From: Usitatibacteraceae bacterium
GTDB lineage: Bacteria; Pseudomonadota; Gammaproteobacteria; Burkholderiales; Usitatibacteraceae
Length of the DNA stretch: 64,000 bases
Direction of reading: 5' to 3'
Assembly: GCA_035432885.1 (NCBI GenBank)
Contig: DAORTX010000001.1
Span: 13,043-77,042, forward strand
A model generated the notes under the pieces. That model made no database searches and was not told the origin of the DNA. It was given only the letters and a program-made list of their open reading frames with translations. Position 1 is the first letter of the stretch; every line of letters starts with the position of its first letter. Both the position numbers and the translations under genes were made by a program. Shown here piece by piece: positions 13,876 to 49,800 of the stretch.

Positions 13876-13949
13876 GCCCGCCGGGGGACAGCCGCCTTGT
13901 TTCGCTTTGATACAATTACACTTTTTCCCGCCCCACGACTCCGGCTACC

Positions 13950-20464: not shown

Positions 20465-20467
20465 GCG

Positions 20468-21346: not shown

Positions 21347-21353
21347 GTCCGCG

Positions 21354-24570: not shown

Positions 24571-24572
24571 CG

Positions 24573-25802: not shown

Positions 25803-25825
25803 GGCGCCAGAAAGCCGGAGTCCCC

Positions 25826-26715: not shown

Positions 26716-26732
26716 TCCCCGCCCCCGACACG

Positions 26733-30148: not shown

Positions 30149-30150
30149 CC

Positions 30151-30729: not shown

Positions 30730-30734
30730 ACAAG

Positions 30735-31493
30735 ATGCTCGTGAAGAATTCCGACCATTTCTGGCCGCTCGTGTGGGCGGTGACCTCGATCGTCCTGGGT
30801 GGCGTGCTGGTTCTCGAGAGCGAGTTCGGCCGCTCCAGTGCCGGCACGGGGCCGCGGGGCCCCGCCAGGGTCGCCGAAGCGAAGCTCCTGCCGGCCTTCC
30901 GGCTGGCGCCGGAATCCCAGGCGGGCGCGCAGACGCTCGAGCGCCCGCTGTTCGTTCCCGGCCGGCGGCCCGCGCCGGCGGCCTCGAGCGCGGGATCCGG
31001 CGCGATCCGGAAAGGCCAGCTCATCCTCCAGGGCACGACGCTCGTCGGAACACTGTCGATCGCGATGCTGAAGGAGGTCTCCACGGGCGTGGTGCACCGG
31101 GTCGAGAAGGGCGGGGAGATCCTCGGGATGACGCTTGCCGAAATCGCGGCGGAGCAGGTTGTCCTGAAGGCTGGCGGTGATTCGGAGACGTTGGCTCTCG
31201 TGGTGGCCAAGGGTTCCGGAAACGCGGCGGCTGCCGTCGAGCGGGGTCCGTTCGGCTCGTCAGTCGCCCCCACGCCGCCAGGCACCCAGGCGGGCCGCCC
31301 CGCCGCGGCCCCCGGCGCGCCTTCGCCGATCGCCGTCGGCGATTCGACCGGGCCTGTCCCGACGGCAAGGGCGATCCCGTCGGGCGCCATGTCGGTCTCG
31401 CCGCCAGCCGCCACCCCGGGCTCGGCCGCCATGACGCCCGAGGAAATCATCGCGCGGCGTCGCGCCGCGCGCCGCCCGCAACCGCAGAATTGA
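30735..31493 (+). CDS. XpsN/GspC-like T2SS protein (no PDZ recognisable)
   Basis: 252 aa with an N-terminal TM (FWPLVWAVTSIVLGGVLVL) and a Pro/Ala-rich C-terminal half. It sits immediately before the secretin gene, as in xps-type clusters. Confidence 0.5.
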   Translation: MLVKNSDHFWPLVWAVTSIVLGGVLVLESEFGRSSAGTGPRGPARVAEAKLLPAFRLAPESQAGAQTLERPLFVPGRRPAPAASSAGSGAIRKGQLILQGTTLVGTLSIAMLKEVSTGVVHRVEKGGEILGMTLAEIAAEQVVLKAGGDSETLALVVAKGSGNAAAAVERGPFGSSVAPTPPGTQAGRPAAAPGAPSPIAVGDSTGPVPTARAIPSGAMSVSPPAATPGSAAMTPEEIIARRRAARRPQPQN

Positions 31494-31503: not shown

Positions 31504-33714
31504 ATGCCCCCCTTCTCCAGTCCCCTTTACCGTGAAAGCGGAATAGCCTTGATCCGGCGCACCAGAATCCGAGTCCGCACGATCGCCACCGTCCTGGCGC
31601 TTGCGGTCTCGTCGTGCTCGCTGTTGCCCGCGCCGCAACCGGGCGCGCCTGGCACCGAGCGCGAGCGGGCGGAGTTCGGGCCGCGAGCGCCGTCGGTCGC
31701 TCAGGGGACGCCCCAGCCGGCTGTCGTGGCCGAAAAGCCGCGAGTGTTTCCCGGCACGGGCAATTTCCTGAACACGAAGCCGCCCGCCCCGCAGCCGCCC
31801 GCAGGCCCCGAGGAAGCGAGCCTCAACTTCGAGGCGCTGGACGTGCGCTCGGCCGCCAAGGTGATCCTGGGTGACTACCTTCGCGAGTCCTACACAGTGC
31901 ACCCGGGGGTCACGGGCAATGTCACTTTCCGGACGATCAAGCCGATTCCGCGCTCGGCGCTCCTGCCCACGCTCGAGATGCTGCTTCGCCAGAACAACGC
32001 CGCCGTCGTGAAGGAAGACGGCGTCTTCAAGGTGCTTCCCATTTCCGCGGTGCGCGGATCCGTTTCGCCCCAGCTCGGCGCGGCGACGGCGCCCGTGCCG
32101 GCGGGCTATTCCGTCCTCGTGGTTCCGGTGAAGTACGTGGGCGCCCGGGAAATGGCGAAACTTCTCGAGCCTTTCGCCGCCGAGAATACCGTCCGCGTCG
32201 ACGACGTGAGGAACCTGGTAATCCTCGCGGGGAACCAGAAGGAACTGCGCCACCTCCTCGACACGATCGAGCTCTTCGACGTCGACTGGCTTGCCGGCTT
32301 TTCCATCGGCATCTTCCCGGTGAGGAGCGCCGACGTGAAGGCGCTTGTGGCCGACCTGGACAAGGTGTTCGGCGCCACGGCGGCGGGCCCGCTCGCCGGG
32401 CTCGTCCGCGTGATACCGATCGAGCGGCTGAATTCCCTTCTCATCGTGACCACGCAGCCGAAGTACCTGGAGAGCGCGAAGTCGTGGATGGAGCGACTCG
32501 ACCAGATCGGCGCGACCACCGGCGGGTCGCGGCTCTTCGTCTACACGGTGAAGAACGGCAAGGCCGAGAACCTCGCCAATCTCGTGAGCGAATTGTTCAC
32601 CAAGCGAACGACCACGACGATCGCTCCGCCGCAACTCGCGCCTGGTGCGCGACCCGGGCAGATCGCCACGACGCCCCAGACCGGGGCCGCGGGGGCGGGA
32701 ATCCAGCAGCCCGGGGCGACCCAGCCGTCGGCGGCCTCGTTCGCCATTCCGGGCACGGTGGCGAGCGTCTCGAGCGAGGTACGCGTCATCGCGGACAAGG
32801 ACAACAATGCGCTCCTCATCCTCGCCACGCCCACGGACTACGAGATCATCGAATCGGCGCTGGTGAAGCTCGACGTCATTCCGAGGCAGGTGCTGGTGGA
32901 AGTGACGATCGCGGAGGTCACGCTGTCCGACGACCTCAAGTTCGGGGTCGACTGGTTCCTAACCGGGCGCAGCGTGGGGAGCGCGAGCATCACCTCGGGC
33001 TCGCTCAACCTGGGCGGACTACCGCTCACGGCCACCGGAGCGGTGCCGGCGTTCTCGGGTCTGCAGCTCATCAACAGCCTTGGCGGCGACGTGCGCGCCG
33101 TCCTCAACGCGCTGGGCAAGGATGGGCGCCTGCAGGTGCTTGCTACGCCGCAACTCATGGTGCTGGACAACCAGAAAGCCCAGATCAAGGTCGGAGACCG
33201 CATTTCGGTGCAGACGCAGCAGCAGACTGTCTCGGGCACCACGACCGGGCTCATCAACAGCTTCCAGTATATCGAGACGGGCATCCTGCTTTCGGTCACG
33301 CCCCGCATCAATTCCGGCGGGCAGGTGACGCTGGAGGTGAGCCAGGAAGTAAGCGTTCCCGGAGTCCCGTCCGTCGCCGGGGCGAACCCCGACATCAGCC
33401 AGCGCACGGCGACCACTACCGTTGTGGTGGGCTCGGGAGAATCCATCGTTCTCGGCGGGCTGATCCGCGAGGACAATACCCGCTCGACGTCCGGCATCCC
33501 GCTGCTGTCCAAGATCCCGATACTCGGCGCCGCGTTCGGGACGCAGAGCATCGTCAAGCGCCGTACGGAGACCATCCTGCTCATCCGTCCGATCGTCATC
33601 ACGAACGTGCGGCAGGCGGCCGAGGCGACCGAGGAGTTGCGGCGCAAGATGCCTTCGCTCGAGGGATTGCTGCCGGCAATGCCGGCGCAGCCCGCTCCCG
33701 CCGGCGCGCGCTAG
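31504..33714 (+). CDS. gspD: Type II secretion secretin GspD (predicted lipoprotein)
   Basis: 736 aa with the secretin C-domain (GESIVLGGLIREDNTRSTSGIPLLSKIPILGAAFG) and a lipobox LAVSS-C (Cys codon 31615). An alternative TTG start lies near 31549. Confidence 0.9.
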   Translation: MPPFSSPLYRESGIALIRRTRIRVRTIATVLALAVSSCSLLPAPQPGAPGTERERAEFGPRAPSVAQGTPQPAVVAEKPRVFPGTGNFLNTKPPAPQPPAGPEEASLNFEALDVRSAAKVILGDYLRESYTVHPGVTGNVTFRTIKPIPRSALLPTLEMLLRQNNAAVVKEDGVFKVLPISAVRGSVSPQLGAATAPVPAGYSVLVVPVKYVGAREMAKLLEPFAAENTVRVDDVRNLVILAGNQKELRHLLDTIELFDVDWLAGFSIGIFPVRSADVKALVADLDKVFGATAAGPLAGLVRVIPIERLNSLLIVTTQPKYLESAKSWMERLDQIGATTGGSRLFVYTVKNGKAENLANLVSELFTKRTTTTIAPPQLAPGARPGQIATTPQTGAAGAGIQQPGATQPSAASFAIPGTVASVSSEVRVIADKDNNALLILATPTDYEIIESALVKLDVIPRQVLVEVTIAEVTLSDDLKFGVDWFLTGRSVGSASITSGSLNLGGLPLTATGAVPAFSGLQLINSLGGDVRAVLNALGKDGRLQVLATPQLMVLDNQKAQIKVGDRISVQTQQQTVSGTTTGLINSFQYIETGILLSVTPRINSGGQVTLEVSQEVSVPGVPSVAGANPDISQRTATTTVVVGSGESIVLGGLIREDNTRSTSGIPLLSKIPILGAAFGTQSIVKRRTETILLIRPIVITNVRQAAEATEELRRKMPSLEGLLPAMPAQPAPAGAR

Positions 33715-33894: not shown

Positions 33895-34341
33895 TTGGCA
33901 GTGAAAGCACGCATATTTCGCGGTACCCCGGGGATCGCCGGGCGGTATGTTCGGATTCTCGCCGCAGGCCTCGTGGCCGGCATCGCCGGTTGTGCGACGC
34001 AGCCAGTGCCTGTCGCGATGCCGGAGAAGAGCCGCGAGGCGGTCGTCCTGGAGAAGGCCCAGGCTCGCTGGGATGCGTTGCTGAAGAACCGGATGACCGA
34101 GGCGTACCAGTTCTACAGTCCTGCGAGCCGGGTGGTTTTGAGTTACGAGGATTTCATCCGTTCCATGCGGGTGGGCTTCTGGAAGGCGGCACAGGTGGAC
34201 CGGGTGGAGTGCCAGGCCGAGGATGCCTGCGAGGCCATCGTCGCCATCGAGTATCAGCACCGGGGAAGCCGGGTCCGGACGCCGATCCGGGAAACCTGGA
34301 TCCGCGTGGAAGGAAACTGGTGGTATGTGCAGAAAGGTTGA
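33895..34341 (+). CDS. Small lipoprotein of unknown function
   Basis: 148 aa from TTG 33895. GTG 33901, with GGGAG upstream, is more likely the start. It has a lipobox LVAGIAG-C, and I recognise no catalytic motif. Confidence 0.65.
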   Translation: MAVKARIFRGTPGIAGRYVRILAAGLVAGIAGCATQPVPVAMPEKSREAVVLEKAQARWDALLKNRMTEAYQFYSPASRVVLSYEDFIRSMRVGFWKAAQVDRVECQAEDACEAIVAIEYQHRGSRVRTPIRETWIRVEGNWWYVQKG

Positions 34342-34385: not shown

Positions 34386-34414
34386 TTGTAAATCCCGGGT
34401 GACTGGGATAGAAT
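34386..34414 (+). promoter_or_regulatory. Sigma70-type promoter of the 489-aa exported protein gene
   Basis: TTGTAA (34386-91), a 17-nt spacer, then TAGAAT (34409-14). An AAGGAG Shine-Dalgarno lies at 34461-66, 11 nt before the ATG at 34478. Confidence 0.5.
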
Positions 34415-34477: not shown

Positions 34478-35947
34478 ATGAACACGTTCAAAAGAAAAGC
34501 GCTGGCCGCCGCCGTCTTCGCGGGGCTGGGCGTTGGTTCGGCTCAGGCCGTCTACCAGGACCCGAACGGCCTTGGCCAGGGTTTGTATTACCCGTACTAC
34601 ACCGTCCAGTCCGTCGACGGCAACGCCTACAACACGTACGTGTCGGTCGTGAACACCACCGCCACCGGCAAGGTCGTCAAGGTCCGCTTCCGCGAAGGCA
34701 AGCAATCGCGCGAAGTCCTTGACTTCAACCTCTACCTGTCGCCCAACGACGTCTGGACCGGCGCGATCATCCCGGCCGACGCCACCGCGACTTCGCCCGG
34801 CCGCCTGGTCACGTCGGACGTCTCCTGCACGAACCCCGCCATCCCCGCCACGGGAATCGACTTCCGGAACTTCCAGTACTCCGGCGCGTTCGACGACGGC
34901 GCCGGCACCGGCCTCGACCGTTCCCGCGAGGGCTACATCGAGATGCTGGAAATGTCGACCGTTATCGGACCGTCCTTGGCCGCGATCACCCACTCGGCCG
35001 CGACTGGCGTCCCGACTTGCACCGGCGTCCGTGGCCCCGGCCCGAACGCGCTCCCGCTTGCTGACCGCGCTGCCCCGACGGGCGGCCTGTCCGGCAACGG
35101 CACGCTCATCAACGTGAACAACGGGTCCGACGCGGGCTACAACGCCGTCGCGCTCGCCAACGTCACGACCACCGACATCTACACGGACGTCGGCTCGGAA
35201 ATTGGTGGCTTCGATCAGGCCGACCCGGTCAGCATCGTGGTCGCGACCTCTCCGGCGGGCACGCATTCCTACACGTCCCAGTGGCTGCTTGGCATCGACG
35301 CCGTGTCCTCGACGATGATGCACCAGAACGTCATCAACGAGTACGTGCTGGACGCGGGCACCAAGTCGAACACCGACTGGGTGATGACCTTCCCGACCAA
35401 GCGCTTCTACGTGACGACGGCCGCCGCGGCGGCGCCGTTCACCAACAAGTTCACGGCGACGGGTTCCTGCGAGTCCTTCGGCTTCCAGTTCTTCAACCGT
35501 GAAGAGCGTGGCGCCACGGCTGCAGGCGGCGACTTCTCGCCGCTGCCCCCGACCCTCGTGGCCGGCCTGTGCTGGGAATCGACTGTCCTGAGCATCCGCT
35601 CCGGCCAGACGCACAACCCGTCGGGCAACACTTCCGGTGTCCTGGGTTCCGCCAACAATCTGTCGGTCAACGTGACTGCCGGCAACCAGAACGGCTGGGC
35701 GAACCTCAGCTTCACGGGCGCCAACTCGCTGGTCGGCCTCGTGTCGCAAGCGGGTTCGAGCACCGTCAACATCGGCACGCTGGTTGGCGTCGCTGGCGCG
35801 CAGACTTACCTTGGCCTGCCGGTCACGGGCTTCATGGCGCGCTCGTTCAACAACGGCACGCTTACCTGCGAGGGCGCTTCCTGCCAGGGCAACTATGGCA
35901 GCCTGTTCACGCACAACTACATCGACAACATCCAGCCGCGGCCGTAA
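34478..35947 (+). CDS. Exported beta-rich protein of unknown family (candidate surface/S-layer or T2SS substrate)
   Basis: 489 aa with a signal peptide ending GSAQA/VY. The composition is rich in Thr/Ser/Asn/Gly/Val with few charged residues, 6 Cys and no TM. The codon choice looks like that of a highly expressed gene. A strong terminator follows. Confidence 0.8.
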   Translation: MNTFKRKALAAAVFAGLGVGSAQAVYQDPNGLGQGLYYPYYTVQSVDGNAYNTYVSVVNTTATGKVVKVRFREGKQSREVLDFNLYLSPNDVWTGAIIPADATATSPGRLVTSDVSCTNPAIPATGIDFRNFQYSGAFDDGAGTGLDRSREGYIEMLEMSTVIGPSLAAITHSAATGVPTCTGVRGPGPNALPLADRAAPTGGLSGNGTLINVNNGSDAGYNAVALANVTTTDIYTDVGSEIGGFDQADPVSIVVATSPAGTHSYTSQWLLGIDAVSSTMMHQNVINEYVLDAGTKSNTDWVMTFPTKRFYVTTAAAAAPFTNKFTATGSCESFGFQFFNREERGATAAGGDFSPLPPTLVAGLCWESTVLSIRSGQTHNPSGNTSGVLGSANNLSVNVTAGNQNGWANLSFTGANSLVGLVSQAGSSTVNIGTLVGVAGAQTYLGLPVTGFMARSFNNGTLTCEGASCQGNYGSLFTHNYIDNIQPRP

Positions 35948-36002
35948 CGCGGTGGCGATGGGAATGGGGACCGGTTTTCGGCCCCCTTCCCTGCAGCGCT
36001 CG

Positions 36003-36031
36003 ACGGGCAGACTTCGGTCTGCCCGTTTTTT
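36003..36031 (+). terminator. Rho-independent terminator
   Basis: A perfect 10-bp stem (acgggcagac / gtctgcccgt) with a ttcg loop, followed by tttttg. It lies 56 nt after the stop at 35947. Confidence 0.8.
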
Positions 36032-36191: not shown

Positions 36192-37613
36192 ATGCAAAGC
36201 CTGATTCGTTTCCCGAGCTTGCGCCGAATGGGCGCCGCGCTCGCGGCCAGCCTCGGCATTGCCGCCGGGCTCATTCCAGTTCCCTCCGCGATCGCGGCCA
36301 CGGTAAGCCTCACCGGGGGCACCACCGCTTCGTGCACCTACAGCAGCATGGCCGGTAACGCGGCTGGCGACTTCACCTTCACCTGCTCGGGCGGATCGTC
36401 GCCGGGCACCCTTTCGCTCAATCTCGCCGGCACCGCCGCGAGCATCCCGGTCTCCACCGGGTCCACGACCTTCGCTGTCCAGCGATTGAGCGGGACCAGC
36501 GGCGCCATCTCGGGCACCCTGGCGGTCACCTCTGGCACTTGCACCGTGACTCCCGCCACGGTCAATTTTAACGCTGACTCAACCACGCCGAGTTCGACGG
36601 TCACGCTGAGCGCCGGCACGGCGACTGCGGGAACGAGTTGCACCGTCACGCTTACGAGTGCATCGGCGCCGGTCGTCGCGCCGGCCAGCCATACCGTGAG
36701 CGTCGTCAACCCGAACGCGAATGTCTCCTTCCAGTTCACGTCGGCGACGTCGACCGCCTTCTTCAGCGGCACCCCAGTGCCGGTGTCCATCACCATCGCG
36801 CGCACGGGCGGCACGGCCGGCTCCTATAACGTCCCCTTCTATGTCCAGGGCAGCCTGGTAGACGGCTCGGGAAACATCATCGCGGGCGGCGGCACAGTCG
36901 CGCCGCCGCTCTCCTCGGTCACCGGGAACCCCCCCTACGCCTATGGAGTCGCATCCTTCCCGGAGGGAACGGGCTCGCAGACGATCACGTACACGCCACC
37001 GACCGCGGTGCCCGCGGGCGTCACCTCGCCGGCGACCATCAACTACACGCTCCTCGATCCGATGATCGTCGGATCACCGCCGTCGGGCCAAGCCGCCACA
37101 CTCGGCACGACCAAGACAAACGCGATGACCGTCCAGACGCAGGCCGGCTGCGCCACCAGCGCCAACTTTACGGTGCCCTGGACCGGCGGCCAGACTCTCG
37201 TGAGCCAGGTGAAGCGGAACGAGACCGGCGCGGTGTCGATCAATCCGACCCCGGGGCTCATCGGCACCGACGGGTACATGTCTGTGGTGGTCAAAGAGAC
37301 GTCGACCACCGGCGACCAGGCGGACATCCACTACACGCTCTCGGCTTGCCCGGGAGACTTCACACCGGCGATCATTCCGGGCAGCAACTGCGCGCAGCAC
37401 TCGCAGTACACGGGCGGGACGATGCGGTTCTCGATTGGCCCGAAGCCGGTGGGGACGCCTTGGTATCTGTATGTCTGCGAACTGCCGTTGGGCACGACGA
37501 CGGTGTACCTGAATTTCCGGCAGATCAAGAGGCCCACGCCGGTCCCACCGAGCGCGCCGGGCACGCCGAGCTGCCAGTTCACGACCTGCCCGATCTACGT
37601 GCAGTTCAACTGA
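36192..37613 (+). CDS. Exported Thr/Ser/Gly-rich, 10-cysteine protein of unknown family
   Basis: ATG at 36192 with AAAGGA upstream. The signal peptide ends PSAIA/ATVS. The protein is 473 aa, with Ig/Calx-beta-like low-complexity beta segments and 10 Cys. A perfect TATAAT lies at 36081-36086. Confidence 0.75.
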   Translation: MQSLIRFPSLRRMGAALAASLGIAAGLIPVPSAIAATVSLTGGTTASCTYSSMAGNAAGDFTFTCSGGSSPGTLSLNLAGTAASIPVSTGSTTFAVQRLSGTSGAISGTLAVTSGTCTVTPATVNFNADSTTPSSTVTLSAGTATAGTSCTVTLTSASAPVVAPASHTVSVVNPNANVSFQFTSATSTAFFSGTPVPVSITIARTGGTAGSYNVPFYVQGSLVDGSGNIIAGGGTVAPPLSSVTGNPPYAYGVASFPEGTGSQTITYTPPTAVPAGVTSPATINYTLLDPMIVGSPPSGQAATLGTTKTNAMTVQTQAGCATSANFTVPWTGGQTLVSQVKRNETGAVSINPTPGLIGTDGYMSVVVKETSTTGDQADIHYTLSACPGDFTPAIIPGSNCAQHSQYTGGTMRFSIGPKPVGTPWYLYVCELPLGTTTVYLNFRQIKRPTPVPPSAPGTPSCQFTTCPIYVQFN

Positions 37614-37630: not shown

Positions 37631-37668
37631 GGCCCGCATGCGAGAGCGCATGCGGGCCTTTTGTTTGG
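37631..37668 (+). terminator. Rho-independent terminator
   Basis: A perfect 12-bp stem (ggcccgcatgcg / cgcatgcgggcc) with an agag loop, followed by ttttgttt. It lies 17 nt after the stop at 37613. Confidence 0.85.
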
Positions 37669-37684: not shown

Positions 37685-38662
37685 TTGAATTCTCTCTTTG
37701 CCACCCTTGCCGCCGCCGCGGCGATCACCGCGGCGCCTCTGGCCGCCGCCGAAACCCCGCTCGTGAAGAACGGGGACATCGTCGTCACGGAGGCCGACTT
37801 CGAGGCGTACATGGAACGCGTGCCGCTCGAGCTTCGCAACGAGGCGAAGGCGGACGGCGAGCGCAACAACAAGGTCGTCGACCTCATCTTCTCCAACCGC
37901 GTCCTCGCGCAGGAGGCGCGCAAGGCCGGCCTGGACAAGGACCCGGCCCTGGCCCGCCGGATCCAGCAGCACCAGGAGGCCTTCCTCGCGCTGCAGTACG
38001 TGGCCTACCTCGAGCGCATCGCGCCGATTCCCGCCGATCTCGAGGCGCGCGCACTTGAGCTCTACCTCACGAAGCCCGACCGCTACACCGAGCCCGATCG
38101 CGTGGAGTTGCAGCACGTCCTCGTGGGACTCATCGGCCGCACGAGGGAACAGGCGCTGGCCCGCGCGGAGGAAGTCCGCGCCAAGGCGGTAGGCGGCGCG
38201 GACTTCCTGGCGCTGGCCCGGGAGTATTCCGACGATCCCGGCCTCATTCGCAATGGCGGCAGGCTCGGCGCCGTCACTGACAAGGAGATCGACCATCGCA
38301 TCGCCAAGGTCGCCTTCGGGATGAAGTCGGACGGCGAGATATCGGCGCCCATTGTGGCCACCCATGGCGTTCACATCGTGAAGCGCACGGGCTTCAAGCC
38401 CTCCTTCAAGCGCAAGTTCGAGGACGTGAAGGAAGCGATCATCGAGGAAACGCGCGCGCGCCTGCGAAGCGAGGTCTCCCTAAAGCTTCTGGACGCCTGG
38501 CGCCGTAGCCCCGAGACGCAGTGGAACGCAAAGGCCATCGCGGCATTGCGGACCGAGGTGCCGAGGGATGAACTGAAACGCAAGCAGCGCGAGGCGGTGG
38601 AGCGAATGGCGGAAGAAGCGAAGGAAGCCGCCACACCCGCCGCGCCGCCCGCCCGCAACTGA
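37685..38662 (+). CDS. Secreted PpiC/parvulin-type peptidyl-prolyl cis-trans isomerase
   Basis: TTG start at 37685, after AGAAAGGA. The signal peptide is LAAAAAITAAPLAAAE. The parvulin core reads VELQHVLV ... DDPGLIRNGGRLG ... THGVHIVKR. Confidence 0.8.
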   Translation: MNSLFATLAAAAAITAAPLAAAETPLVKNGDIVVTEADFEAYMERVPLELRNEAKADGERNNKVVDLIFSNRVLAQEARKAGLDKDPALARRIQQHQEAFLALQYVAYLERIAPIPADLEARALELYLTKPDRYTEPDRVELQHVLVGLIGRTREQALARAEEVRAKAVGGADFLALAREYSDDPGLIRNGGRLGAVTDKEIDHRIAKVAFGMKSDGEISAPIVATHGVHIVKRTGFKPSFKRKFEDVKEAIIEETRARLRSEVSLKLLDAWRRSPETQWNAKAIAALRTEVPRDELKRKQREAVERMAEEAKEAATPAAPPARN

Positions 38663-38669
38663 CTTTTCG

Positions 38670-39455
38670 ATGTCCGCCACCGTCTACACCCATCGGTGGC
38701 TCCTCGCGTCCTTCGTTCGCCGCGAGCTCGGCACGCGCTACGCGGGCTCCGTGAGTGGCGCGGCGTGGGCTCTGCTGCATCCGCTGGCGCTCCTCGCGGT
38801 CTACGCGTTCATCTTCACGACGGTTTTCCGCGTCCAGTTGCCCCTGGGCGCGGGAGGCGCCAGCTACACCGCTTTCGCGGCCGTGATGCTATGGCCGTGG
38901 ATCATGTTCTCCGAGGGCGTGACGCGGGGCATGGAATCGATCCAGTCCAACGCCGGGCTCATCCGCAAGGTGGCCTTTCCCCACGCACTGCTCGTCTACG
39001 CCGCCGTCGTGTCTTCGTTCGCGGTCCATGCCCTGGGCTTCGTAGCAGTCCTCGTGGTGCTCGCGGTGCTGGGCGAGCCGGTCCACCTCGTGCGCGCGCC
39101 CCTCACCCTGGCCTTTCTCGTGCCGCTGGCGATCGCGGCGGTCGGCGTGGCTGCCGTCCTCGCGGCGCTCCAGACGCTGCTCAAGGACGTGGGGCAGGTG
39201 GTTTCCATCGGCCTCACCGTGCTCTTCTACGGCACGCCCATCCTCTATCCCCTGGCCTTCGTCCCCGATTCGATGCGCCCGTGGATGGCGGCGAACCCGC
39301 TCACCGGCATGGCGGAGCGCTTGCGCGAGGTGCTGTTGACGGGTGGCGGCCTCGTGCCCGGCGATCTCTGGCTCTGGGTCATCGCGCTGGCCGTGGCATG
39401 GGCGGGCTTGCGGTTCTTCGAGCGCCTTTCCCCGCATTTCGAGGATTTCCTGTGA
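38670..39455 (+). CDS. wzm: ABC-2 type polysaccharide export permease (Wzm/TagG-like)
   Basis: 261 aa with six predicted TM segments. The N-terminus RRELGTRYAGSVSGAAWALLHP is typical of Wzm. Confidence 0.8.
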   Translation: MSATVYTHRWLLASFVRRELGTRYAGSVSGAAWALLHPLALLAVYAFIFTTVFRVQLPLGAGGASYTAFAAVMLWPWIMFSEGVTRGMESIQSNAGLIRKVAFPHALLVYAAVVSSFAVHALGFVAVLVVLAVLGEPVHLVRAPLTLAFLVPLAIAAVGVAAVLAALQTLLKDVGQVVSIGLTVLFYGTPILYPLAFVPDSMRPWMAANPLTGMAERLREVLLTGGGLVPGDLWLWVIALAVAWAGLRFFERLSPHFEDFL

Positions 39456-40708
39456 GCCGCCCGTTCTCGCGGGTGACACCCGTTGCCGCGGATGCGGATG
39501 CGAGCGTCCTCGTGGCCCTCGAGGGCGTCGGCAAGGACTACCCCAAGGTCAGCGCAGGAGGAGACCGCCTACGCACGCTGTGGGGTCTGCTTGCGGGCCA
39601 TGCCGACATCCCGCGATTTCGCGCGCTGCAGGGCGTGACGGCCTCGGTTCATCGCGGCGAATCCCTGGGACTCGTGGGAGAGAACGGCGCCGGAAAGTCC
39701 ACGCTTCTCAAGATCATCGCGGGCGTGGTGAAGCCGTCGGCCGGCTCGGTACGGGTGGCCGGGCGGATCGGCGCGCTCCTCGAGCTTGGGAGCGGTTTCC
39801 ACCCCGAGTACACGGGGCGCGAGAACATCTACCTTGCCGCGGCGCTCATGGGCCTTTCGCGCCGGGAAACGCGGGAAAAGGTCGACGCCATCATCGCCTT
39901 TGCCGACATCGGCCAGCATATCGAAGAACCCATCAAGCATTACTCCTCCGGCATGGCGGTCCGGCTGGGGTTCGCCGTGGCCACCGCGCTCACGCCGGAC
40001 ATCCTCATCACCGACGAAGTCCTCGCCGTGGGCGACGAATCGTTCCAGAAGAAATGCATTCGCTGGCTCGAGCGCTACCTCGGCGACGGGGGCACCCTGC
40101 TGCTGTGCTCGCACAGCATGTACCACGTGCAGACGCTCTGCTCGCGCGCGATGTGGCTCCACGAGGGCGCGGTCCGCCTGGACGGCGACAGTTTCGACGT
40201 GACGCGCGAGTACCTCACCTACCACGAGGAGAAAGGCCGCGGAGAAAAGCCGGCGCCTCGAGCCGCCGAAGGGCTGGTTCCGCTCATCCGGGCCATGCGC
40301 GTCGAGCGGGCGGACGGCACCGCCCTGGAGGTGCTTTCAGCCGGCGACGACATGGTGCTCCAGGGCCTCGCCTGGAGCCCGGACGGCCGCGCTCCCGTTC
40401 TGCTCTTCGGCATCGTCCGCGCCGATGGCACGCCGGTCTACGGCGCGCATTCCAATGACGACGGCTTCGAGCCGCTCCGGGTGGACGAGCACCACTTCGC
40501 CTTCTCCGCGCATTTTCCCGCGCCGGGCCTGCTGCCGGGAAAGTACGCGGTGCGCGTCCATGCGCTCGACCCCGAGGGGCTTCGCCTCTTCGACACGCAG
40601 GAGCGCCAGATCGTGGTCACGGGCCGCACGCGCGACTATGGGCTGGTGCGGCTTGCGCATTCCTGGAAGGCCGGCACCCTTCGGCCGGGGGCGGCGGGAA
40701 CACCCTGA
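39452..40708 (+). CDS. wzt: Polysaccharide export ABC ATPase (Wzt-like) with C-terminal extension
   Basis: GTG at 39452 overlaps the wzm stop. Walker A GENGAGKST, signature YSSGMAVRL, Walker B ILITDE. About 150 extra C-terminal residues could form a Wzt_C-like glycan-binding domain. Confidence 0.8.
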   Translation: MSRPFSRVTPVAADADASVLVALEGVGKDYPKVSAGGDRLRTLWGLLAGHADIPRFRALQGVTASVHRGESLGLVGENGAGKSTLLKIIAGVVKPSAGSVRVAGRIGALLELGSGFHPEYTGRENIYLAAALMGLSRRETREKVDAIIAFADIGQHIEEPIKHYSSGMAVRLGFAVATALTPDILITDEVLAVGDESFQKKCIRWLERYLGDGGTLLLCSHSMYHVQTLCSRAMWLHEGAVRLDGDSFDVTREYLTYHEEKGRGEKPAPRAAEGLVPLIRAMRVERADGTALEVLSAGDDMVLQGLAWSPDGRAPVLLFGIVRADGTPVYGAHSNDDGFEPLRVDEHHFAFSAHFPAPGLLPGKYAVRVHALDPEGLRLFDTQERQIVVTGRTRDYGLVRLAHSWKAGTLRPGAAGTP

Positions 40709-42702
40709 TGGCAAGCCCGCAGCAAGACGACATGCGCGAGGCTTGCGCGAGGATCCTCGACCTCGCCCGGCGCGGCCTCGATGCGCAGGCGCTCGAGGAA
40801 AGCCGCGCGCTGGCGGAGCGCTTTGGCGACCGGCCGGAGCCGCGCCTGCAGCTGGGCGTGCTCCTGCTCCAGTCGGGCGATCGAGCGGGGGCGGAAACCG
40901 TGCTTCGCGAATGCCTGGCACTGGCGCCGGGGCTCACGCCCGCGCTGACACTGCTCGGCGATCTGCTGTTCGACAGGCGAGACCTCGCGGGTGCGCTCGA
41001 CTGCTTCACCACGCTGGCACGCACGCGCCCGGACGACGGCCGTCTCTGGAACAACATCGCCATCACGCAACTTGCCCTCGGGCGGTTCGAGGATTCGGAA
41101 GCGGCCGCGCGGCGCGCCAGGACGCTCGAGCCGCGAAGCGCCATCGCCTGGCTGAACCTGGGCCGTGCCTGCGCGGCACGGGAAAAGCGCGAGGATGCGC
41201 TGGCTGCTCTGGGCGAGTGCCTGAGGCTCGATCCGTCGAACGCCGATGCGAACGACCTGGCGGGCAGGGTGCAGGCGCAGGCCGGCATGTATGGCCGCGC
41301 AGCGAAGTCGTTTCGAAGGGCGCTCGACTCGGGCGGGGGTGCGATGACGGCGAGCCGGCTGGGCGACGCCCTCATGCAATCGGGTGACGCGGCAGGCGCC
41401 ATCGCCGCCTATCGGGACGCCGAGGCACGCGATCCCGCCCACGCCGCCGGGAACGGGAGCCGTGCGCTCTTTGCCCTCCACGCCGACGATCGCGTGAGCC
41501 AGGCGGAAATCTTTGCGGCGCACCGCGACTGGGCGAATCGGCATGCGACGGTCCGCTCGGGCGTTGTCCATCCCAATCCCCGAGAGCCCGGCAAGCCGCT
41601 GCGCGTGGGCTACGTATCGCCGCGGCTCAACCGGTCGTCGGCAGCCTTCGTCCTGATGCCCGTCCTCGAGCACCACGAGCCGGGCGAGGTGGCGTACTTC
41701 TGCTACGCCGGCCAGGACACCGATGACGACGTGACGCGGCGAATCCGGGCTCGCGCCGCGGGCTGGCGCGACACGCGGGAGCTCGATGACGATGCGCTCG
41801 CGCAGGCGATCCGGGACGACGGGATCGACATCGTCGTCGATCTGGCCGGGCACACGCCCGGAAACCGGCTTCCGGCGCTCGCGCGCCGGCCGGCGCCGAT
41901 CGTCCTCTCCTGGCTGGACTACTTCGACACGACGGGCTGCGATTGCATCGATGCCGTCGTCACGGATTCGTTGCATTCGCCACCGGGAGATGCGCAGCCC
42001 TTCTCGGAGCGGCTGCTTCGCCTGGCGCCCTTGCGTCTTTGCTACGCGGCGCCGGACTATGCGCCTGAGCCCGTCCCGCCGCCCTCGGCAAGCGGCGCAG
42101 CCATCGTCTTCGGCGCTTTCCACCGCATGGCGAAGATCGGTCCGCGCGTGGTGGGCGCCTGGACGGAACTCCTGTCGCGCCTCCCCGAGGCGCGGCTGGT
42201 GATCAAGAACGACGCGCTGAACGGCGAAGGAGAGCGCGCCTGGCAAAGCGAGCGGCTTGCCGCGGCGGGACTGCCGATGTCGCGCGTCGAGCTGCGCGGC
42301 GCCTCGGACCATCCGGACATGCTGGGGCAATATGGAGGCGTCGACATTGCCCTCGACGCCTTCCCCTACAACGGCGGCATCACCACCCTCGAGGCCCTGT
42401 GGATGGGTCGCCCGGTCGTCGCGGTCCGGGGCGAGACGCTCATCTCGCGCCAGTCGGCCGCGATCCTCCAGTCGATCGGCCTCGGGGAACTGGTCGCCCG
42501 CGATTGGCGCGAGATGATCGCGCTCGCGGCCGCACTGGCCGCGGATCCCGGTCGGCTGGCCGCCCTCGCCGCGAGCATTCGCGGGCGCATGGCCGCATCG
42601 CCGGTTTGCGACACGGCGGCATTCACGCGTTCGCTGGAAGCGGCGTACCGCTCGTCCTGGCGCGCGTACTGCGCAGGCGAGCCCATCGGAGATTCCCATT
42701 GA
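40708..42702 (+). CDS. TPR-repeat protein fused to GT41 (SPINDLY/OGT-like) glycosyltransferase
   Basis: 664 aa with N-terminal TPRs and a C-terminal GT41 signature (DIALDAFPYNGGITTLEALWMGRPVV ... SRQSAAILQSIGL). The ATG overlaps the wzt stop by 1 nt. Confidence 0.8.
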   Translation: MASPQQDDMREACARILDLARRGLDAQALEESRALAERFGDRPEPRLQLGVLLLQSGDRAGAETVLRECLALAPGLTPALTLLGDLLFDRRDLAGALDCFTTLARTRPDDGRLWNNIAITQLALGRFEDSEAAARRARTLEPRSAIAWLNLGRACAAREKREDALAALGECLRLDPSNADANDLAGRVQAQAGMYGRAAKSFRRALDSGGGAMTASRLGDALMQSGDAAGAIAAYRDAEARDPAHAAGNGSRALFALHADDRVSQAEIFAAHRDWANRHATVRSGVVHPNPREPGKPLRVGYVSPRLNRSSAAFVLMPVLEHHEPGEVAYFCYAGQDTDDDVTRRIRARAAGWRDTRELDDDALAQAIRDDGIDIVVDLAGHTPGNRLPALARRPAPIVLSWLDYFDTTGCDCIDAVVTDSLHSPPGDAQPFSERLLRLAPLRLCYAAPDYAPEPVPPPSASGAAIVFGAFHRMAKIGPRVVGAWTELLSRLPEARLVIKNDALNGEGERAWQSERLAAAGLPMSRVELRGASDHPDMLGQYGGVDIALDAFPYNGGITTLEALWMGRPVVAVRGETLISRQSAAILQSIGLGELVARDWREMIALAAALAADPGRLAALAASIRGRMAASPVCDTAAFTRSLEAAYRSSWRAYCAGEPIGDSH

Positions 42703-44903
42703 CCGCTGAACGCCGGGGGGCTGCGCAACGATTGCATGGCGAGGGCCGGATCGAGGAAGCGCTCGCCGCTTATTCGGCGCTGATCGCCGAGAGCGATGGC
42801 GATGCCGAGCTCTGGCACCTTCGCGCCATCGCCGAACACCAGCTCGGACGGCCGTCGCTCGCGCGGCAATCCGCCCAGCGCGCCATCGCGATCGACGAGG
42901 CGCCGCCTGCCTATCACTTCATGGCAGGACAAGCGGCTACCGACGAGGGAAATCCTGCCGCGGCGGCAGAGCATTTTGCCGCCACCGTCGCGAGGAAGCC
43001 GGACTGGGCCGCGGCATGGATCGCGCTGGGCGTGGCGCGCCTGGACCACGGAGAACCCGTTGGCGCTCGCGACGCGCTCGAGCGCGCGGTCGGCCTCGAT
43101 CCTTCGGCGGCGCCGGCCTGGAATAGCCTCGGACTCGCGGAGCTCGGGCTGGACAGGCCAGCGGAGGCGGCCGTGGCCTTGCGTCGAGCGCTCGCGGTGG
43201 ATCCGGGATACGCGCTCGCGCACCTGAACCTCGCCCGGATCTCGGAACGGGAAAGCCGGGTCGACGAGGCGCTGGACAGCCTGGAGGAGGCGCTTCGCGC
43301 GAATCCGCGGCTGGCGGAGGCGCTGCTGTTGCGGGCACAGCTCCTGCGGCGAAAGCGCGACCCGCGCGCCGGCGGCGCGCACAAGGTCGCCGTGCAGGCG
43401 CTCCCGGGTGACGCGCGCATCCGCGCCGCGTGGGCCGATTTTCTCTGGGAAACGGGGCTCGTCGACGAGGCAATCAAGGAGTTCAAGCGCGCCGAGGCGC
43501 TCGATCCCGCCAATCTTCGCGCCGCGCTTGGCGCTCGCCTTGTCCTGCCGGCCGTCTACCGTGACGAGGCGGACCTCGAAGCCAATCGCGCCCGATTCGC
43601 GCGGGGGCTGGAGGAATTGCACGCCGGCGTGGCGCGGTTTTCCGGGGCGCGGCCCAACGCCGCCCTCGTGGGCGCGAGCTGGACCAATTTCTACCTGGCC
43701 TACCAGGGCCGCAACGACCGCGACCTTCAGTCGCGGTACGGCGACTTCGTGGCCGATGCGCTTCGCCCCAGCCTGCCGGGGTACTTCGTCGATCGTCCGC
43801 CGCCTCGCCGGAAGGGACGGCTTCGCGTGGGATTCCTCAGCCACTTCTTCTTCAACTGCACCGTCGGACGGTATTTCGCGAGCTGGATTCTGGACCTCGA
43901 TCCCGCGCGCTTCGAAAAGGTCGTGTTCTACACGAACCCCTGGGTTGCCGACGACACGCGCGCCATCGCCGCCGCCGCCGAGCGCTTCCACCACGTCTGC
44001 GGATATCCGCTGCATGCCATCGCGCAGCGCGTGGCGGCCGAGGAGCTCGACATCCTCGTCTATCCGGAGCTCGGCATGCACGCCGAGACGTTCGCCCTCG
44101 CCGCCCTCCGGCTGGCCCCGGTGCAGGTGATGGGGTGGGGGCATCCCACCACGAGCGGGCTCGCCTCGATCGACGCGTTCCTCACTTGCGCCGGGATGGA
44201 GCCCGAGGACGCCCAGGAGGCATACCGCGAGCGCGTTGTCGGATTGCCCGGCATCGGCACGCGCTACCGGCGCCCGCGCACCGATAGCGCGAAGGACCGC
44301 GAATCGCTGGGACTTCCCGCGACGGGAACGCTCTATCTTTGCCCGCAGTCGCTCTTCAAGATCCACCCGGCCAACGACGCCCTGTTCGCGCGCGTGCTTG
44401 CCGGCGATCCCCGGGGGCGGCTGGTCTTCTTCGGCTACCGCGAGGGCCCGGTCACGCAGCACTTCCGGCGGCGGCTGTTCGAGGCGCTGGCGCAGGCCGG
44501 GATCGATGCGGAGCGCCGCACCGTATTCCTCGGCTTTCTTTCGCACGAGGAGTACCTGCGCGTCAACGCGCTTTGCGACGTGATGCTGGACACGCTTCAC
44601 TGGTCCGGCGGCAACACCTCCCTCGATGCGATCGCCGCGGGCCTGCCGCTCGTCACGCTGCCGGGGTCGCTCATGCGCGGCCGCCAGAGCGCGGCGATGC
44701 TGGGCGCGATCGGGCTCGAGGCGCTGGTTGCGAAGGATCCGGACGACTATGCGCGAATTGCGCTTCGGCTGGGGATGGACGCATCCTGGCGGCGCGAGAT
44801 CCGCGCCGTGCTGGAGCAGGGGTCGGACTCGCTCTTCGACGACACCGCGCCCACCGAGGCGCTCGCCCGGGAGCTGGAGGAACTCGCAGGCCGGGAGCGC
44901 TGA
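42699..44903 (+). CDS. TPR-repeat protein fused to GT41 (SPINDLY/OGT-like) glycosyltransferase, second copy
   Basis: A TTG at 42699 overlaps the upstream stop, so the start is uncertain. The protein has TPRs plus a GT41 signature (DVMLDTLHWSGGNTSLDAIAAGLPLV ... GRQSAAMLGAIGL). Confidence 0.7.
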   Translation: MTAERRGAAQRLHGEGRIEEALAAYSALIAESDGDAELWHLRAIAEHQLGRPSLARQSAQRAIAIDEAPPAYHFMAGQAATDEGNPAAAAEHFAATVARKPDWAAAWIALGVARLDHGEPVGARDALERAVGLDPSAAPAWNSLGLAELGLDRPAEAAVALRRALAVDPGYALAHLNLARISERESRVDEALDSLEEALRANPRLAEALLLRAQLLRRKRDPRAGGAHKVAVQALPGDARIRAAWADFLWETGLVDEAIKEFKRAEALDPANLRAALGARLVLPAVYRDEADLEANRARFARGLEELHAGVARFSGARPNAALVGASWTNFYLAYQGRNDRDLQSRYGDFVADALRPSLPGYFVDRPPPRRKGRLRVGFLSHFFFNCTVGRYFASWILDLDPARFEKVVFYTNPWVADDTRAIAAAAERFHHVCGYPLHAIAQRVAAEELDILVYPELGMHAETFALAALRLAPVQVMGWGHPTTSGLASIDAFLTCAGMEPEDAQEAYRERVVGLPGIGTRYRRPRTDSAKDRESLGLPATGTLYLCPQSLFKIHPANDALFARVLAGDPRGRLVFFGYREGPVTQHFRRRLFEALAQAGIDAERRTVFLGFLSHEEYLRVNALCDVMLDTLHWSGGNTSLDAIAAGLPLVTLPGSLMRGRQSAAMLGAIGLEALVAKDPDDYARIALRLGMDASWRREIRAVLEQGSDSLFDDTAPTEALARELEELAGRER

Positions 44904-44908
44904 CGCCG

Positions 44909-45304
44909 GTGGAGCTCTCGCTCTGGGCGACGTTTGTCTCTGCGTTCGTCTCGGCCACGCTGCTGCCGGGAAACTCGGAGATCGTGCTGGCGGTCGCCCT
45001 GAAGGCAGGTGCCGCGCCTGCGGCGGCCATCGCCGTGGCGACCCTGGGCAATACCCTCGGCGGGCTTACCACCTATGGCATCGGCCGTCTGCTGCCGACG
45101 CGGATGCCCGAGGGAAGGGCCATTGCCCGCGTGAGGCGATACGGCGTCGCGGTCCTGCTCCTGGCCTGGGTGCCGATTGCCGGCGACGCCCTGTGCGCGG
45201 CCGCCGGCTGGCTGCGCCTGAACTGGCTCGGCTGCACGCTCGCGATGGCTGCGGGAAAGGCGGCTCGCTACGCCGCGCTCGCCCACGCAGTCGCCCTGTT
45301 CTAG
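44909..45304 (+). CDS. YqaA/DedA-superfamily small membrane protein
   Basis: GTG at 44909 gives 131 aa. The motifs ATLLPGNSE and LLAWVPIAGDALC are typical of YqaA. It starts 5 nt after the GT41 gene. Confidence 0.65.
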   Translation: MELSLWATFVSAFVSATLLPGNSEIVLAVALKAGAAPAAAIAVATLGNTLGGLTTYGIGRLLPTRMPEGRAIARVRRYGVAVLLLAWVPIAGDALCAAAGWLRLNWLGCTLAMAAGKAARYAALAHAVALF

Positions 45305-49349: not shown

Positions 49350-49793
49350 ATGTCTCGCCCGGCCCCACCCCCGGATTGTGATCTATGCCATGGCGCGGGG
49401 GGCACGCTCCTCTGGCAGAATGATTGCTGCCGGGTGGTCGCCGTGGACGAACCCGGTCACCCGGGGTTTCTCCGGGTGGTGCTCAATCGCCACGTGCGAG
49501 AAATGTCCGACCTTGCCGAGGCCGACCGGAACCGGCTGATGGCCGTGGTTTTCGCCGTGGAGGCCCATGTGAGGCGGTCGCTGGAGCCCGACAAGATGAA
49601 CCTCGCGAGTCTAGGCAACCTGACGCCGCACCTGCACTGGCACGTCATTCCCCGCTGGCGCGACGATCGGCATTTTCCCGGCCCGGTCTGGTCCACCGCG
49701 AAGCACGAGGCACCCGTTCCCGGCGATCGGGCCGCGGCGGCGGCGCGAATGGCGGACGCCCTGCCCGCGGCGCTTGCGGACCTGGGCGCATGA
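49350..49793 (+). CDS. HIT family protein
   Basis: 147 aa with the histidine triad HLHWHVIPR. Confidence 0.85.
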   Translation: MSRPAPPPDCDLCHGAGGTLLWQNDCCRVVAVDEPGHPGFLRVVLNRHVREMSDLAEADRNRLMAVVFAVEAHVRRSLEPDKMNLASLGNLTPHLHWHVIPRWRDDRHFPGPVWSTAKHEAPVPGDRAAAAARMADALPAALADLGA

Positions 49794-49800
49794 GGCTTCC

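Follow-up and report, generated by a model that had tools for sequence, protein, structure and literature searches.

The nearest described architecture to the gene region considered here is the A-layer locus of Aeromonas salmonicida and A. hydrophila (PMC4483657, PMC4413209). In A. salmonicida, this locus has the order rml-wzm-[T2SS + vapA]-wzt-glycosyltransferase genes, where T2SS denotes the type II secretion system, and it specifies a rhamnose-containing O-antigen that is exported by an ATP-binding cassette (ABC) transporter (PMC4483657). The region under study belongs to a stretch of 64,000 nucleotides from a Usitatibacteraceae bacterium (assembly GCA_035432885.1, contig DAORTX010000001.1, positions 13,043 to 77,042), which is termed the window throughout and has a G+C content of 69%. 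It contains a six-gene operon (37685-45304) that encodes a parvulin, the exporter components Wzm and Wzt, two enzymes combining tetratricopeptide repeats (TPRs) with a domain of glycosyltransferase family 41 (GT41) and a small YqaA-like membrane protein, and that is preceded by the genes of a T2SS, a small lipoprotein and two secreted proteins designated u1 and u2. Like the Aeromonas locus, the window unites rml genes, wzm and wzt, glycosyltransferase genes, a full T2SS set and the gene of a putative surface protein of about 50 kDa in one cluster. In both cases the T2SS genes end with the secretin gene on the side of the structural gene, and the order rmlBACD, T2SS, structural protein, wzm/wzt and glycosyltransferases in the window mirrors that of Aeromonas. 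Unlike in Aeromonas, a parvulin, a lipoprotein and, besides u1, a hypervariable protein belong to the core, the transferases are of the TPR-GT41 type instead of the WbbB, GT2 and GT4 types, and the linkage to rml is not kept in relatives. The likeness is one of gene content and gene order, and the coat considered here is a predicted one.

The operon also resembles the ABC-dependent O-polysaccharide pathways of Escherichia coli O9a, Klebsiella O12/O4 and Aquifex aeolicus, which likewise comprise a Wzm and a Wzt with C-terminal extension, transferase genes that lie immediately downstream and are translationally coupled, and initiation and ligation genes that are encoded elsewhere. In classical clusters of this kind the glycosyltransferase genes directly follow wzm-wzt, and the WecA, WaaL and chain-length genes are usually located outside the cluster. 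The operon differs from these pathways in that its sole transferases belong to GT41, a family without known polysaccharide activity, in that no coiled-coil terminator of the WbdD/WbbB type was recognised, and in that a periplasmic foldase is its first gene. A TPR-like module has been described once in an ABC-dependent pathway, as part of a chain terminator (PMC11231755).

Two further systems are relevant to the comparison. The Gram-positive slg clusters of Geobacillus stearothermophilus and Paenibacillus alvei contain rml, wzm, wzt and WsaB genes for the glycosylation of surface-layer (S-layer) proteins (PMC2943079). The window shares rml, wzm, wzt and glycosyltransferase genes with these clusters, in which they provide the glycan of a surface-layer protein, but it contains no oligosaccharyltransferase of the Wzy_C type, derives from a Gram-negative organism with a T2SS and makes use of other glycosyltransferase families. 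In Caulobacter crescentus, the genes for RsaA, for type I secretion and for the O-antigen reside in one region. A surface protein, its secretion system and the cognate anchoring O-polysaccharide are thus encoded together there, as is proposed here, with the differences that type I secretion is used, that the proteins are unrelated and that neither a parvulin nor a GT41 enzyme is present. By its gene content, the module described below appears to be a variation on this known theme of a surface protein, a secretion system and a cognate glycan, in which the divergent GT41 transferases, a foldase encoded in the operon and a protein family that is huge and without annotation stand out as unusual.

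A comparison with related loci indicated that the operon belongs to a larger set of genes and is not the stand-alone unit for which it had been taken by the sequence-only reading, which had overlooked both the T2SS as the most conserved partner and the rml genes. The proposed link of the operon to the adjacent exported proteins was supported in this comparison, and the conserved synteny strongly supports a predicted functional connection with the T2SS, with u1 and with the protein family of u2, which is designated X. The six reading frames, their junctions and their domain identities were confirmed by inspection of the frames and by Pfam. The parvulin gene (37685-38662) is separated from wzm (38670-39455) by a gap of 7 nt (38662/38670), wzm overlaps wzt (39452-40708) by 4 nt (39452/39455), wzt overlaps the first TPR-GT41 gene, GT41-A (40708-42702), by 1 nt (40708), GT41-A overlaps GT41-B (42699-44903) by 4 nt (42699/42702), and a gap of 5 nt (44903/44909) precedes the gene of the YqaA-like protein (44909-45304). 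All six genes are located on the plus strand, and the genes 3' of the operon have housekeeping functions. Junctions this tight are usual for operons in a genome with 69% G+C, and they vary with the choice of the start codon.

The proteins encoded in the window were scored against Pfam with curated cut-offs, against NCBIfam and against the sequences of the PDB, and a structure model was additionally used for u1. The first gene of the operon specifies a periplasmic parvulin-type peptidyl-prolyl isomerase (PPIase) or chaperone resembling PEB4, SurA and PrsA (Pfam Rotamase, 69.8 bits), the homologues of which bear clear signal peptides in six related loci. Its nearest solved relatives are Cbf2/PEB4 of Campylobacter jejuni (3rfw, E=5e-16) and SurA, and the matches in NCBIfam were restricted to sub-threshold ones to PrsA, SurA, PpiD and NifM, so that the earlier likening to the EpsD-type PPIases of exopolysaccharide loci was not borne out. 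The second gene encodes the ABC-2 permease Wzm (Pfam ABC2_membrane, 46.3 bits), with weak NCBIfam matches to KpsM and to a galactan Wzm. The ABC ATPase Wzt (Pfam ABC_tran) carries a C-terminal extension that is probably a carbohydrate-binding domain, as judged from a Wzt_C match of 22.4 bits (cut-off 30.4), which recurs as a weak match in locus L162, and from the alignment with the full-length Wzt of A. aeolicus (8dku/7k2t; E=3e-57, residues 57-367), which reaches residue 346 of the 404 residues of 8dku and covers part of the carbohydrate-binding domain. Wzt also matches TagH/TarH at about 1e-50, and its first 23 residues or so are not conserved among homologues. In two related loci, wzm is directly followed by a GT41 gene without wzt (L001:2129-3094 and L081:7699-8563), so that neither locus encodes an ATPase partner for its permease. 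A YqaA-like gene at the same position as in the window occurs in these two loci only. The YqaA-like protein is a small membrane protein and a putative member of the VTT/DedA superfamily (Pfam VTT_dom, E=7e-7, 30.1 bits against a cut-off of 33.9), which gave no match in NCBIfam. DedA proteins are flippases of undecaprenyl phosphate (C55-P) (PMC11474028, PMC12893004).

Related loci were collected by two approaches. A GT41-A profile search of GTDB genomes yielded mostly paralogues, and four syntenic loci were found among the matches listed, namely L039, L002, L018 (Usitatibacteraceae) and L001, which begins at the parvulin gene. The second set was obtained by searching metagenome contigs with a u1 profile, followed by tblastn with all window proteins. 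Altogether, about 18 module loci with adequate flanks were available from metagenome-assembled genomes (MAGs) of Betaproteobacteria and from metagenomes, with proteins that are 35-70% identical. The examination of neighbourhood conservation proposed earlier revealed the same gene order in these loci: Xps-type T2SS, lipoprotein, u1, X, parvulin, variable TPR-fused glycosyltransferases, Wzm, Wzt and GT41. A parvulin gene follows u1 and the intervening X gene in all 15 metagenome loci that reach at least 1.3 kb past u1, as well as in L002, L018, L039, L161, L162 and L167. Among the metagenome loci that extend further, wzm was present in 11 of 11 and wzt in 9, and a GT41-B ortholog directly follows in 9. 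The secretin and lipoprotein genes precede u1 in every locus with upstream sequence, and the gene calls of L161 and L162, which are independent of the tblastn mapping, showed the same order and the same translational coupling. With respect to the window, the identities amount to about 60-80% for the secretin, 51-63% for u1, 48-71% for Wzm, 62-71% for Wzt, 47-66% for GT41-B and 34-57% for the parvulin, and to at most 35% for X outside the closest relatives.

The most variable part of the module is located between the parvulin gene and wzm, where relatives encode a GT8-like protein of 231 amino acids, TPR-GT2 fusions or additional TPR-GT41 enzymes; moreover, the cluster of relatives is bordered by GT2 genes at its far end. 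Such a variation of glycosyltransferase content between relatives is typical of surface-glycan diversification. A protein of 570-590 amino acids occupies the interval between parvulin and wzm in three loci (L095:13923-15680, L147:4839-6557 and L162:13777-15543). Its N-terminal half consists of TPRs, and its C-terminal half of about 300 amino acids, which matches no Pfam family, may represent an unrecognised transferase domain.

The locus L167 contains a u1 relative with 42% identity and belongs to a contig that resembles a plasmid in encoding Rep3, a resolvase and the HigB and ParE toxin-antitoxin pairs. The lipoprotein-u1-X-parvulin core is present at 9479-13710 of this contig, preceded by genes for a TPR protein, a GT4/GT2 fusion, a DUF2304 protein, a GT4 enzyme and a member of the SapC family. 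Since the core is kept in this locus without T2SS and Wzm-Wzt within 10 kb, the tightest unit of the module appears to consist of lipoprotein, u1, X and parvulin, with glycan genes of shifting type alongside, and the plasmid-like context suggests that these four genes can move horizontally.

The small lipoprotein (33901-34341, plus strand) was recognised by its lipobox ..IAGC, and its homologues in L162, L163, L165 and L166 have lipoboxes as well. Its gene is located directly upstream of u1 in every u1 locus, including L167, and the protein matches no family in Pfam or NCBIfam. A role as pilotin of the secretin was considered and is unlikely, because in L167 the lipoprotein accompanies u1 although a T2SS is lacking in the vicinity.

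The u1 gene (34478-35947, plus strand) encodes a secreted, beta-rich protein, with a signal peptide and a Shine-Dalgarno sequence readable from the DNA. The mature protein comprises 465 amino acids (48 kDa, pI 4.8), includes six cysteines, is rich in glycine, threonine, alanine and serine, and yielded no match in Pfam, NCBIfam or the PDB sequences. An AlphaFold2 (AF2) model with a mean predicted local distance difference test (pLDDT) value of 82 and a predicted template modelling (pTM) score of 0.85 consists mostly of beta structure, and a Foldseek comparison of this model with the PDB gave no significant fold match, the best hits being weak, galectin- or jelly-roll-like ones (E=0.02). The u1 homologues number more than 3000, none of which has a Pfam domain or a name. 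In the profile search 4168 clusters at 50% identity were retrieved, 1737 of them at E<=1e-30, and the named members are all annotated as 'hypothetical protein'. Most family members have 465-530 amino acids, some are tandem doubles of about 950, and one protein of 1647 amino acids is fused to DUF285 repeats. Distant members form arrays of paralogs in unrelated contexts, and the conservation of u1 itself matches that of the secretin and Wzt. Many of the contigs with u1 are only 1.5-2.2 kb long, which was considered as a sign of high expression; this idea was dropped because short contigs are of usual length in these collections.

The u2 gene (36192-37613, plus strand), the frame of which is open from 36144, encodes the X protein of the window, a secreted protein with 28% serine and threonine and ten cysteines that has no match among the PDB sequences and whose single-sequence AF2 model reached a pLDDT of only 44. 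In 15 other loci, the corresponding position is likewise occupied by a secreted member of the X family. These proteins have a mean identity of 25% and large indels, comprise 300-470 amino acids, are rich in serine, threonine, glycine, alanine and proline, contain cysteines and share a cysteine scaffold as well as the motifs 'S.CPGDF' and 'YY.N.R'. A hypervariability of this kind would be as expected for an exposed protein. Export of X by the twin-arginine translocation (Tat) pathway, to which an 'LLRRT' motif seemed to point, was rejected, since roughly one half of the X proteins lack the motif and the family is rich in cysteine.

The T2SS genes of the module are of the Xps type and were assigned by means of Pfam and of gene calls in orthologous loci. 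The genes gspE-F-G-H-I-J-K-L-M-N extend from 22858 to 31493 on the plus strand and are followed by gspD (31504-33714; Pfam Secretin, Secretin_N and GspD N0), so that the components E, F, G, H, I, J, K, L, M, N and D are specified by 11 genes between 22858 and 33714. Defined boundaries were obtained for gspE (22858-24570; T2SSE and MshEN, start probably at 22858), gspF (24573-25802; T2SSF), gspH (26260-26715; GspH) and a gspI-like pseudopilin gene (26733-27161), all on the plus strand, those of the other genes being approximate. Further Pfam matches in this cluster were T2SSG, N_methyl, T2SSK_1st and PilN, and T2SSJ, T2SSM_b and XpsN were recognised via the gene calls in the orthologous loci L161-L166. 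Neither GspC nor a prepilin peptidase was seen in the T2SS cluster. The secretin GspD is 44-89% identical across all syntenic loci, and GspE is 76-95% identical across the clade, with 76% identity to the protein of the cultured Usitatibacter palustris.

Upstream of the T2SS genes, the window contains waaA, encoding the 3-deoxy-D-manno-octulosonic acid (Kdo) transferase, together with a GT9 heptosyltransferase gene on the minus strand (16297-18560; Pfam Glycos_transf_N and Glyco_transf_9), a GT2 gene for 255 amino acids on the plus strand (18639-19406; Pfam Glycos_transf_2) and the rmlB-rmlA-rmlC-rmlD genes of dTDP-L-rhamnose synthesis, assigned by Pfam, on the plus strand (19403-22774), which end 84 nt ahead of gspE. 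The strands of the first two regions were read from a frame plot of the G+C content at third codon positions (GC3). These rml and lipopolysaccharide (LPS) core genes are located 15-20 kb upstream of the operon, and uppP/bacA was found at 6515-7414. The earlier statement that conventional O-antigen assembly genes are lacking stood in so far as no WecA/WbaP-type, Wzz, WaaL/Wzy_C or WbdD-like protein was detected among all large open reading frames (ORFs) of the window, whereas it had passed over rmlBACD, waaA, the GT9 and GT2 genes and uppP. The related loci, too, yielded no initiating transferase, ligase or chain terminator. Moreover, the lack of WecA, ligase and chain-length genes makes a weak argument, because such genes are usually located outside ABC-dependent clusters. 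The close relatives L163 and L164 have waaA, GT9, GT2 and rmlBACD upstream as in the window, while in the Usitatibacter-like loci L165 and L166 glnK-amtB precedes gspE and no rml genes are present; L165 is part of the same contig as L132, which bears the full module. The linkage to the rml and LPS core genes is thus lineage-specific, and the conserved module extends from the T2SS through the GT41 genes. The view of a classical O-antigen cluster split by insertion of a T2SS, derived from the upstream rmlBACD genes, was downgraded accordingly, as distant carriers have glnK-amtB instead.

With respect to transcription, a consensus scan of the AT-rich spacer 5' of u1 revealed a sigma-70-like promoter match (TTGTAA-17-TAGAAT, 34386-34414, plus strand), which is the sole such site in 12 kb and is a match to the consensus only. 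Intrinsic terminators on the plus strand are located 3' of u1 (36002-36027; 11-bp stem and T-run) and 3' of u2 (37631-37658), the latter being a strong one with a 12-bp stem, 10 G-C pairs and TTTTGTTT. The distance from the end of the u2 terminator to the start of the parvulin gene is 27 nt, which leaves no space for a sigma-70 promoter of its own, and transcription of the operon by read-through from the promoters of u1 and u2 is therefore inferred. The parvulin gene might alternatively begin with TTG at 37661 instead of 37685, and this codon falls within the T-run of the u2 terminator. The whole arrangement suggests attenuation or read-through as a design by which the proportion of structural protein to enzyme would be set.

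The glycosyltransferases of the operon are predicted to be cytoplasmic, as neither a signal peptide nor a membrane segment was found when the sequences of GT41-A and GT41-B were read. Both exceed by far the cut-off of 25 bits for Pfam PF13844, which corresponds to CAZy GT41: the Glyco_transf_41 score is 145.2 bits for GT41-A, an enzyme of a SPINDLY-like lineage with the motif GYVSPRLNRSS, and 104 bits for GT41-B, in which the motif reads GFLSHFFFNC. GT41-A aligns with SPINDLY of Arabidopsis thaliana (7y4i, E=6.5e-89, residues 49-658), with TtOGT (5djs, E=3e-82) and with XcOGT of X. campestris (E=3.5e-39), and GT41-B with human OGT (E=9e-57). Since the mutual identity of the two enzymes is only 27%, they represent old paralogs. 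Orthologs of GT41-A with 60-74% identity occur in MAGs of Burkholderiales and Betaproteobacteria, within the very large COG3914/SPINDLY family, and in only some of the loci (L001, L002, L018, L039 and L161). GT41-B seems to be the universally conserved glycosyltransferase of the module.

Like the GT41 protein glycosyltransferases OGT, SPINDLY, XcOGT, HMW1C/NGT and the COG3914 proteins, both enzymes consist of a TPR array and a GT-B domain and possess the conserved lysine of the nucleotide-binding site, which is kept in all orthologs within 'MAKIG' (K476) in GT41-A and 'LFKIHP' in GT41-B, and which we take to be the equivalent of K842 of human OGT from a reading of the SPINDLY alignment and of the OGT sequence. 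They differ from these enzymes in their context, which is Wzm-Wzt instead of flagellar or adhesin genes, and in the replacement of a motif. The sequence 'GYISPDFFTH' of SPINDLY aligns with 'GYVSPRLNRS' of GT41-A, where the canonical aspartate and histidine are absent. The histidine of the general motif 'GYVSxDFxxH', which corresponds to H498 of human OGT, was present in 145 of 153 TPR-GT41 matches when this column was read in 80 diverse loci. The exceptions include every Wzm-Wzt-linked GT41-A ortholog, with serine or glycine instead (lineage motif 'GYVSPR[FL]xxS/G'), and the GT41-B orthologs of all 15 loci share 'GF.SHFF[FY]NC' with cysteine at the canonical histidine position. Altogether, the histidine is absent from 6 of 6 members of the GT41-A lineage and from 16 of 16 of the GT41-B lineage. 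By sequence, both lineages belong to GT41 but deviate in one feature near-universal in their relatives, and the altered motif fits an unusual acceptor or mechanism without saying which. A non-canonical action of the GT41 enzymes, as raised in the sequence-only reading, gains from this clade-specific loss of the Asp/His motif, and the data are compatible with a lipid-linked as well as with a protein acceptor.

The tentatively favoured interpretation, to which we assign somewhat less than even probability, is that the operon supplies the glycan and the foldase for a cell-surface module conserved in Usitatibacteraceae-like Betaproteobacteria, in which u1 and X would build a coat held on a cognate glycan. 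The cytoplasmic TPR-GT41 enzymes with their altered acceptor-side motif, joined in relatives by the variable TPR-GT2, GT8-like and other transferases, would build up a glycan on the inner side of the membrane, attached to a polyprenyl-phosphate carrier. Wzm-Wzt would export the finished chain, with the C-terminal domain of Wzt reading the chain end, and the YqaA/DedA-like protein might help to recycle the lipid carrier. The glycan would be displayed on the outer surface, most simply as an LPS O-polysaccharide ligated by a WaaL encoded elsewhere. u1 and X would cross the inner membrane via Sec, fold with the help of the parvulin, for which folding of u1 and/or X in the periplasm is the most likely role, and leave the cell through the T2SS. 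Proteins and glycan would form one surface structure comparable to the Aeromonas A-layer, which is linked in such a way to its ABC-exported O-antigen and to the T2SS of its cluster. A high proportion of structural protein relative to enzymes would result from read-through at the terminators of u1 and u2. A lipid-linked, ABC-exported polymer is favoured because of the position of the transferases right after wzm-wzt, the extension of Wzt and the variation of the transferases between lineages. The independence of the module from its neighbours follows from the occurrence of rml and LPS core genes only in close relatives and of glnK-amtB in distant ones.

Several observations weigh against this interpretation. 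The u1 protein has no detectable similarity to S-layer proteins, and its conserved cysteines and acidic motifs would equally suit an enzyme. Its secretion and that of X by the T2SS of the module is deduced from adjacency only, and this T2SS resembles a general Xps-type system. The genes wzt and wzm are not adjacent in L001 and L081, and in L167 neither a T2SS nor Wzm-Wzt is located within 10 kb of the core. An initiating transferase, a ligase, an outer-membrane polysaccharide exporter and an oligosaccharyltransferase are all missing from the module. Furthermore, nearly all transferases in these operons bear TPRs, which in OGT and in FlmG-type enzymes bind protein substrates, and we know of no GT41 enzyme that acts on a lipid-linked acceptor.

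The latter points lead to the main rival explanation, which we regard as unlikely: the TPR-fused transferases would bind nascent u1 and/or X through their TPR domains and O-glycosylate them in the cytoplasm prior to Sec-dependent export, the parvulin would fold and the T2SS secrete the products, and Wzm-Wzt would deal with a separate or accessory glycan. Precedents are provided by HMW1C acting on HMW1 and by the GT41 enzymes of flagellin islands acting on flagellin, GT41-A is alignable from end to end to SPINDLY, a protein O-fucosyltransferase, and GT41-B to human OGT, and TPR fusion is common to all transferases of these operons. The characterised GT41 enzymes OGT, SPINDLY and HMW1C, and by annotation those of the flagellin islands, all glycosylate proteins (PMC4875605). 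The serine and threonine content of 28% and the hypervariability of X would suit such a substrate, and in L167, too, the u1-X-parvulin core has glycosyltransferase genes as neighbours, although these differ in type. Direct glycosylation is, however, difficult to reconcile with the lack, in both GT41 lineages, of the canonical Asp/His acceptor-side motif that is kept by 145 of 153 matches, and it leaves unexplained why nearly all loci show translational coupling between the GT41 genes and Wzm-Wzt with its carbohydrate-binding extension. In addition, the cysteine-rich proteins u1 and X fold in the periplasm and would have to pass Sec already glycosylated, and the asparagine typical of the peptide-binding ladder in OGT was found in only about two of the seven to eight TPRs, a sequence reading of little weight.

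Another alternative, which is improbable, is protein glycosylation en bloc: the GT41 enzymes would build a lipid-linked glycan that is flipped by Wzm-Wzt and loaded onto u1 and X in the periplasm, ahead of the T2SS, by an O-oligosaccharyltransferase of the PglL/Wzy_C type encoded elsewhere. The gene content equals that of the slg clusters minus the transferase (PMC2943079), the parvulin, X and glycan genes are tightly linked, and X is rich in serine and threonine. The window and the related loci examined contain no Wzy_C-, PglL- or PglB-like gene, however, and the key enzyme would need to be unlinked in every lineage.

Slightly less probable still is a mere juxtaposition without any coupling, in which an ordinary LPS O-antigen export operon would reside beside a general T2SS and two of its substrates, with the parvulin as a general chaperone. 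The LPS-rich surroundings of the operon in the window (waaA, GT9, GT2, rmlBACD and uppP), the general Xps type and high conservation of the T2SS, and the synteny that shared ancestry of related genomes predicts to some extent would all agree with this explanation. It does not account for an order that is held across lineages with proteins of 35-65% identity despite gene gain and loss within the cluster, and that is independent of the non-conserved LPS and rml neighbours. Moreover, the parvulin remains with u1-X even on a plasmid-like contig, and the operon start 27 nt past the u2 terminator implies co-transcription. Finally, an exit of the Wzm-Wzt-exported glycan through the GspD secretin, with u1 and X as co-secreted matrix components, is very improbable: it has likewise been proposed for the slime of myxobacteria and cyanobacteria, secretins have been reported to be necessary for the secretion of exopolymer slime (PMC12475490), and the module lacks an outer-membrane exporter of the Wza/KpsD type while its secretin is always linked to Wzm-Wzt, but no mechanism is known by which a T2SS would receive a lipid-linked glycan, the identity of the slime in myxobacteria has itself yet to be settled (PMC12475490), and the carbohydrate-binding domain of Wzt is typical of O-antigens, which need no dedicated outer-membrane channel but Lpt.

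If the favoured interpretation of a u1/X coat on a cognate glycan applies, the Wzm-Wzt-wired GT41 clade would extend GT41 to lipid-linked glycans; alternatively, it would reveal a new coupling of cytoplasmic protein glycosylation and secretion. Searches of the accessible literature library retrieved no report of GT41 enzymes in Wzm/Wzt pathways. A bolder version of this proposal, which we consider doubtful, is that GT41-A and GT41-B are the first GT41 enzymes to build a lipid-linked polysaccharide, that their TPR superhelices provide docking or measure chain length in an ABC-dependent pathway, that this pathway is firmly tied to a T2SS, a dedicated foldase and u1, and that the resulting proteoglycan-like coat is widespread in soil Betaproteobacteria. 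The module also provides a first functional handle on u1, a family of more than 4000 clusters without annotation, and on its hypervariable partner X. Both probably rank among the major secreted or surface-located proteins of soil bacteria that are abundant but have hardly been brought into culture. Usitatibacter strains in culture possess a closely related T2SS and would make these hypotheses directly testable, should the rest of the module be present in them.

The remainder of the window contains several further features. An ORF of about 597 amino acids at 49624-51417 (plus strand) has a strong coding signature (GC3 0.89) and no Pfam match. The genes at 10194-16322 (plus strand) encode a TetR regulator, an HlyD-type adaptor, an ABC ATPase, an ABC-2 permease, a PCMT-type methyltransferase and a TolC-like outer-membrane factor, and probably constitute a tripartite efflux system unrelated to the Wzm-Wzt pair. 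A thiamine pyrophosphate (TPP) riboswitch (Rfam RF00059, 56.4 bits) was detected upstream of thiC at 9971-10065 on the minus strand, from which it follows that the true start of thiC lies downstream of the long ORF start at 10030. At 671-6496 (plus strand), after the 3' end of a methyl-accepting chemotaxis protein (MCP) gene, a CheA-type hybrid kinase of 1941 amino acids is encoded, which contains several Hpt, HATPase, CheW and receiver domains in a ChpA/PilL-like manner and probably belongs to a chemosensory system of the Chp/Pil type.

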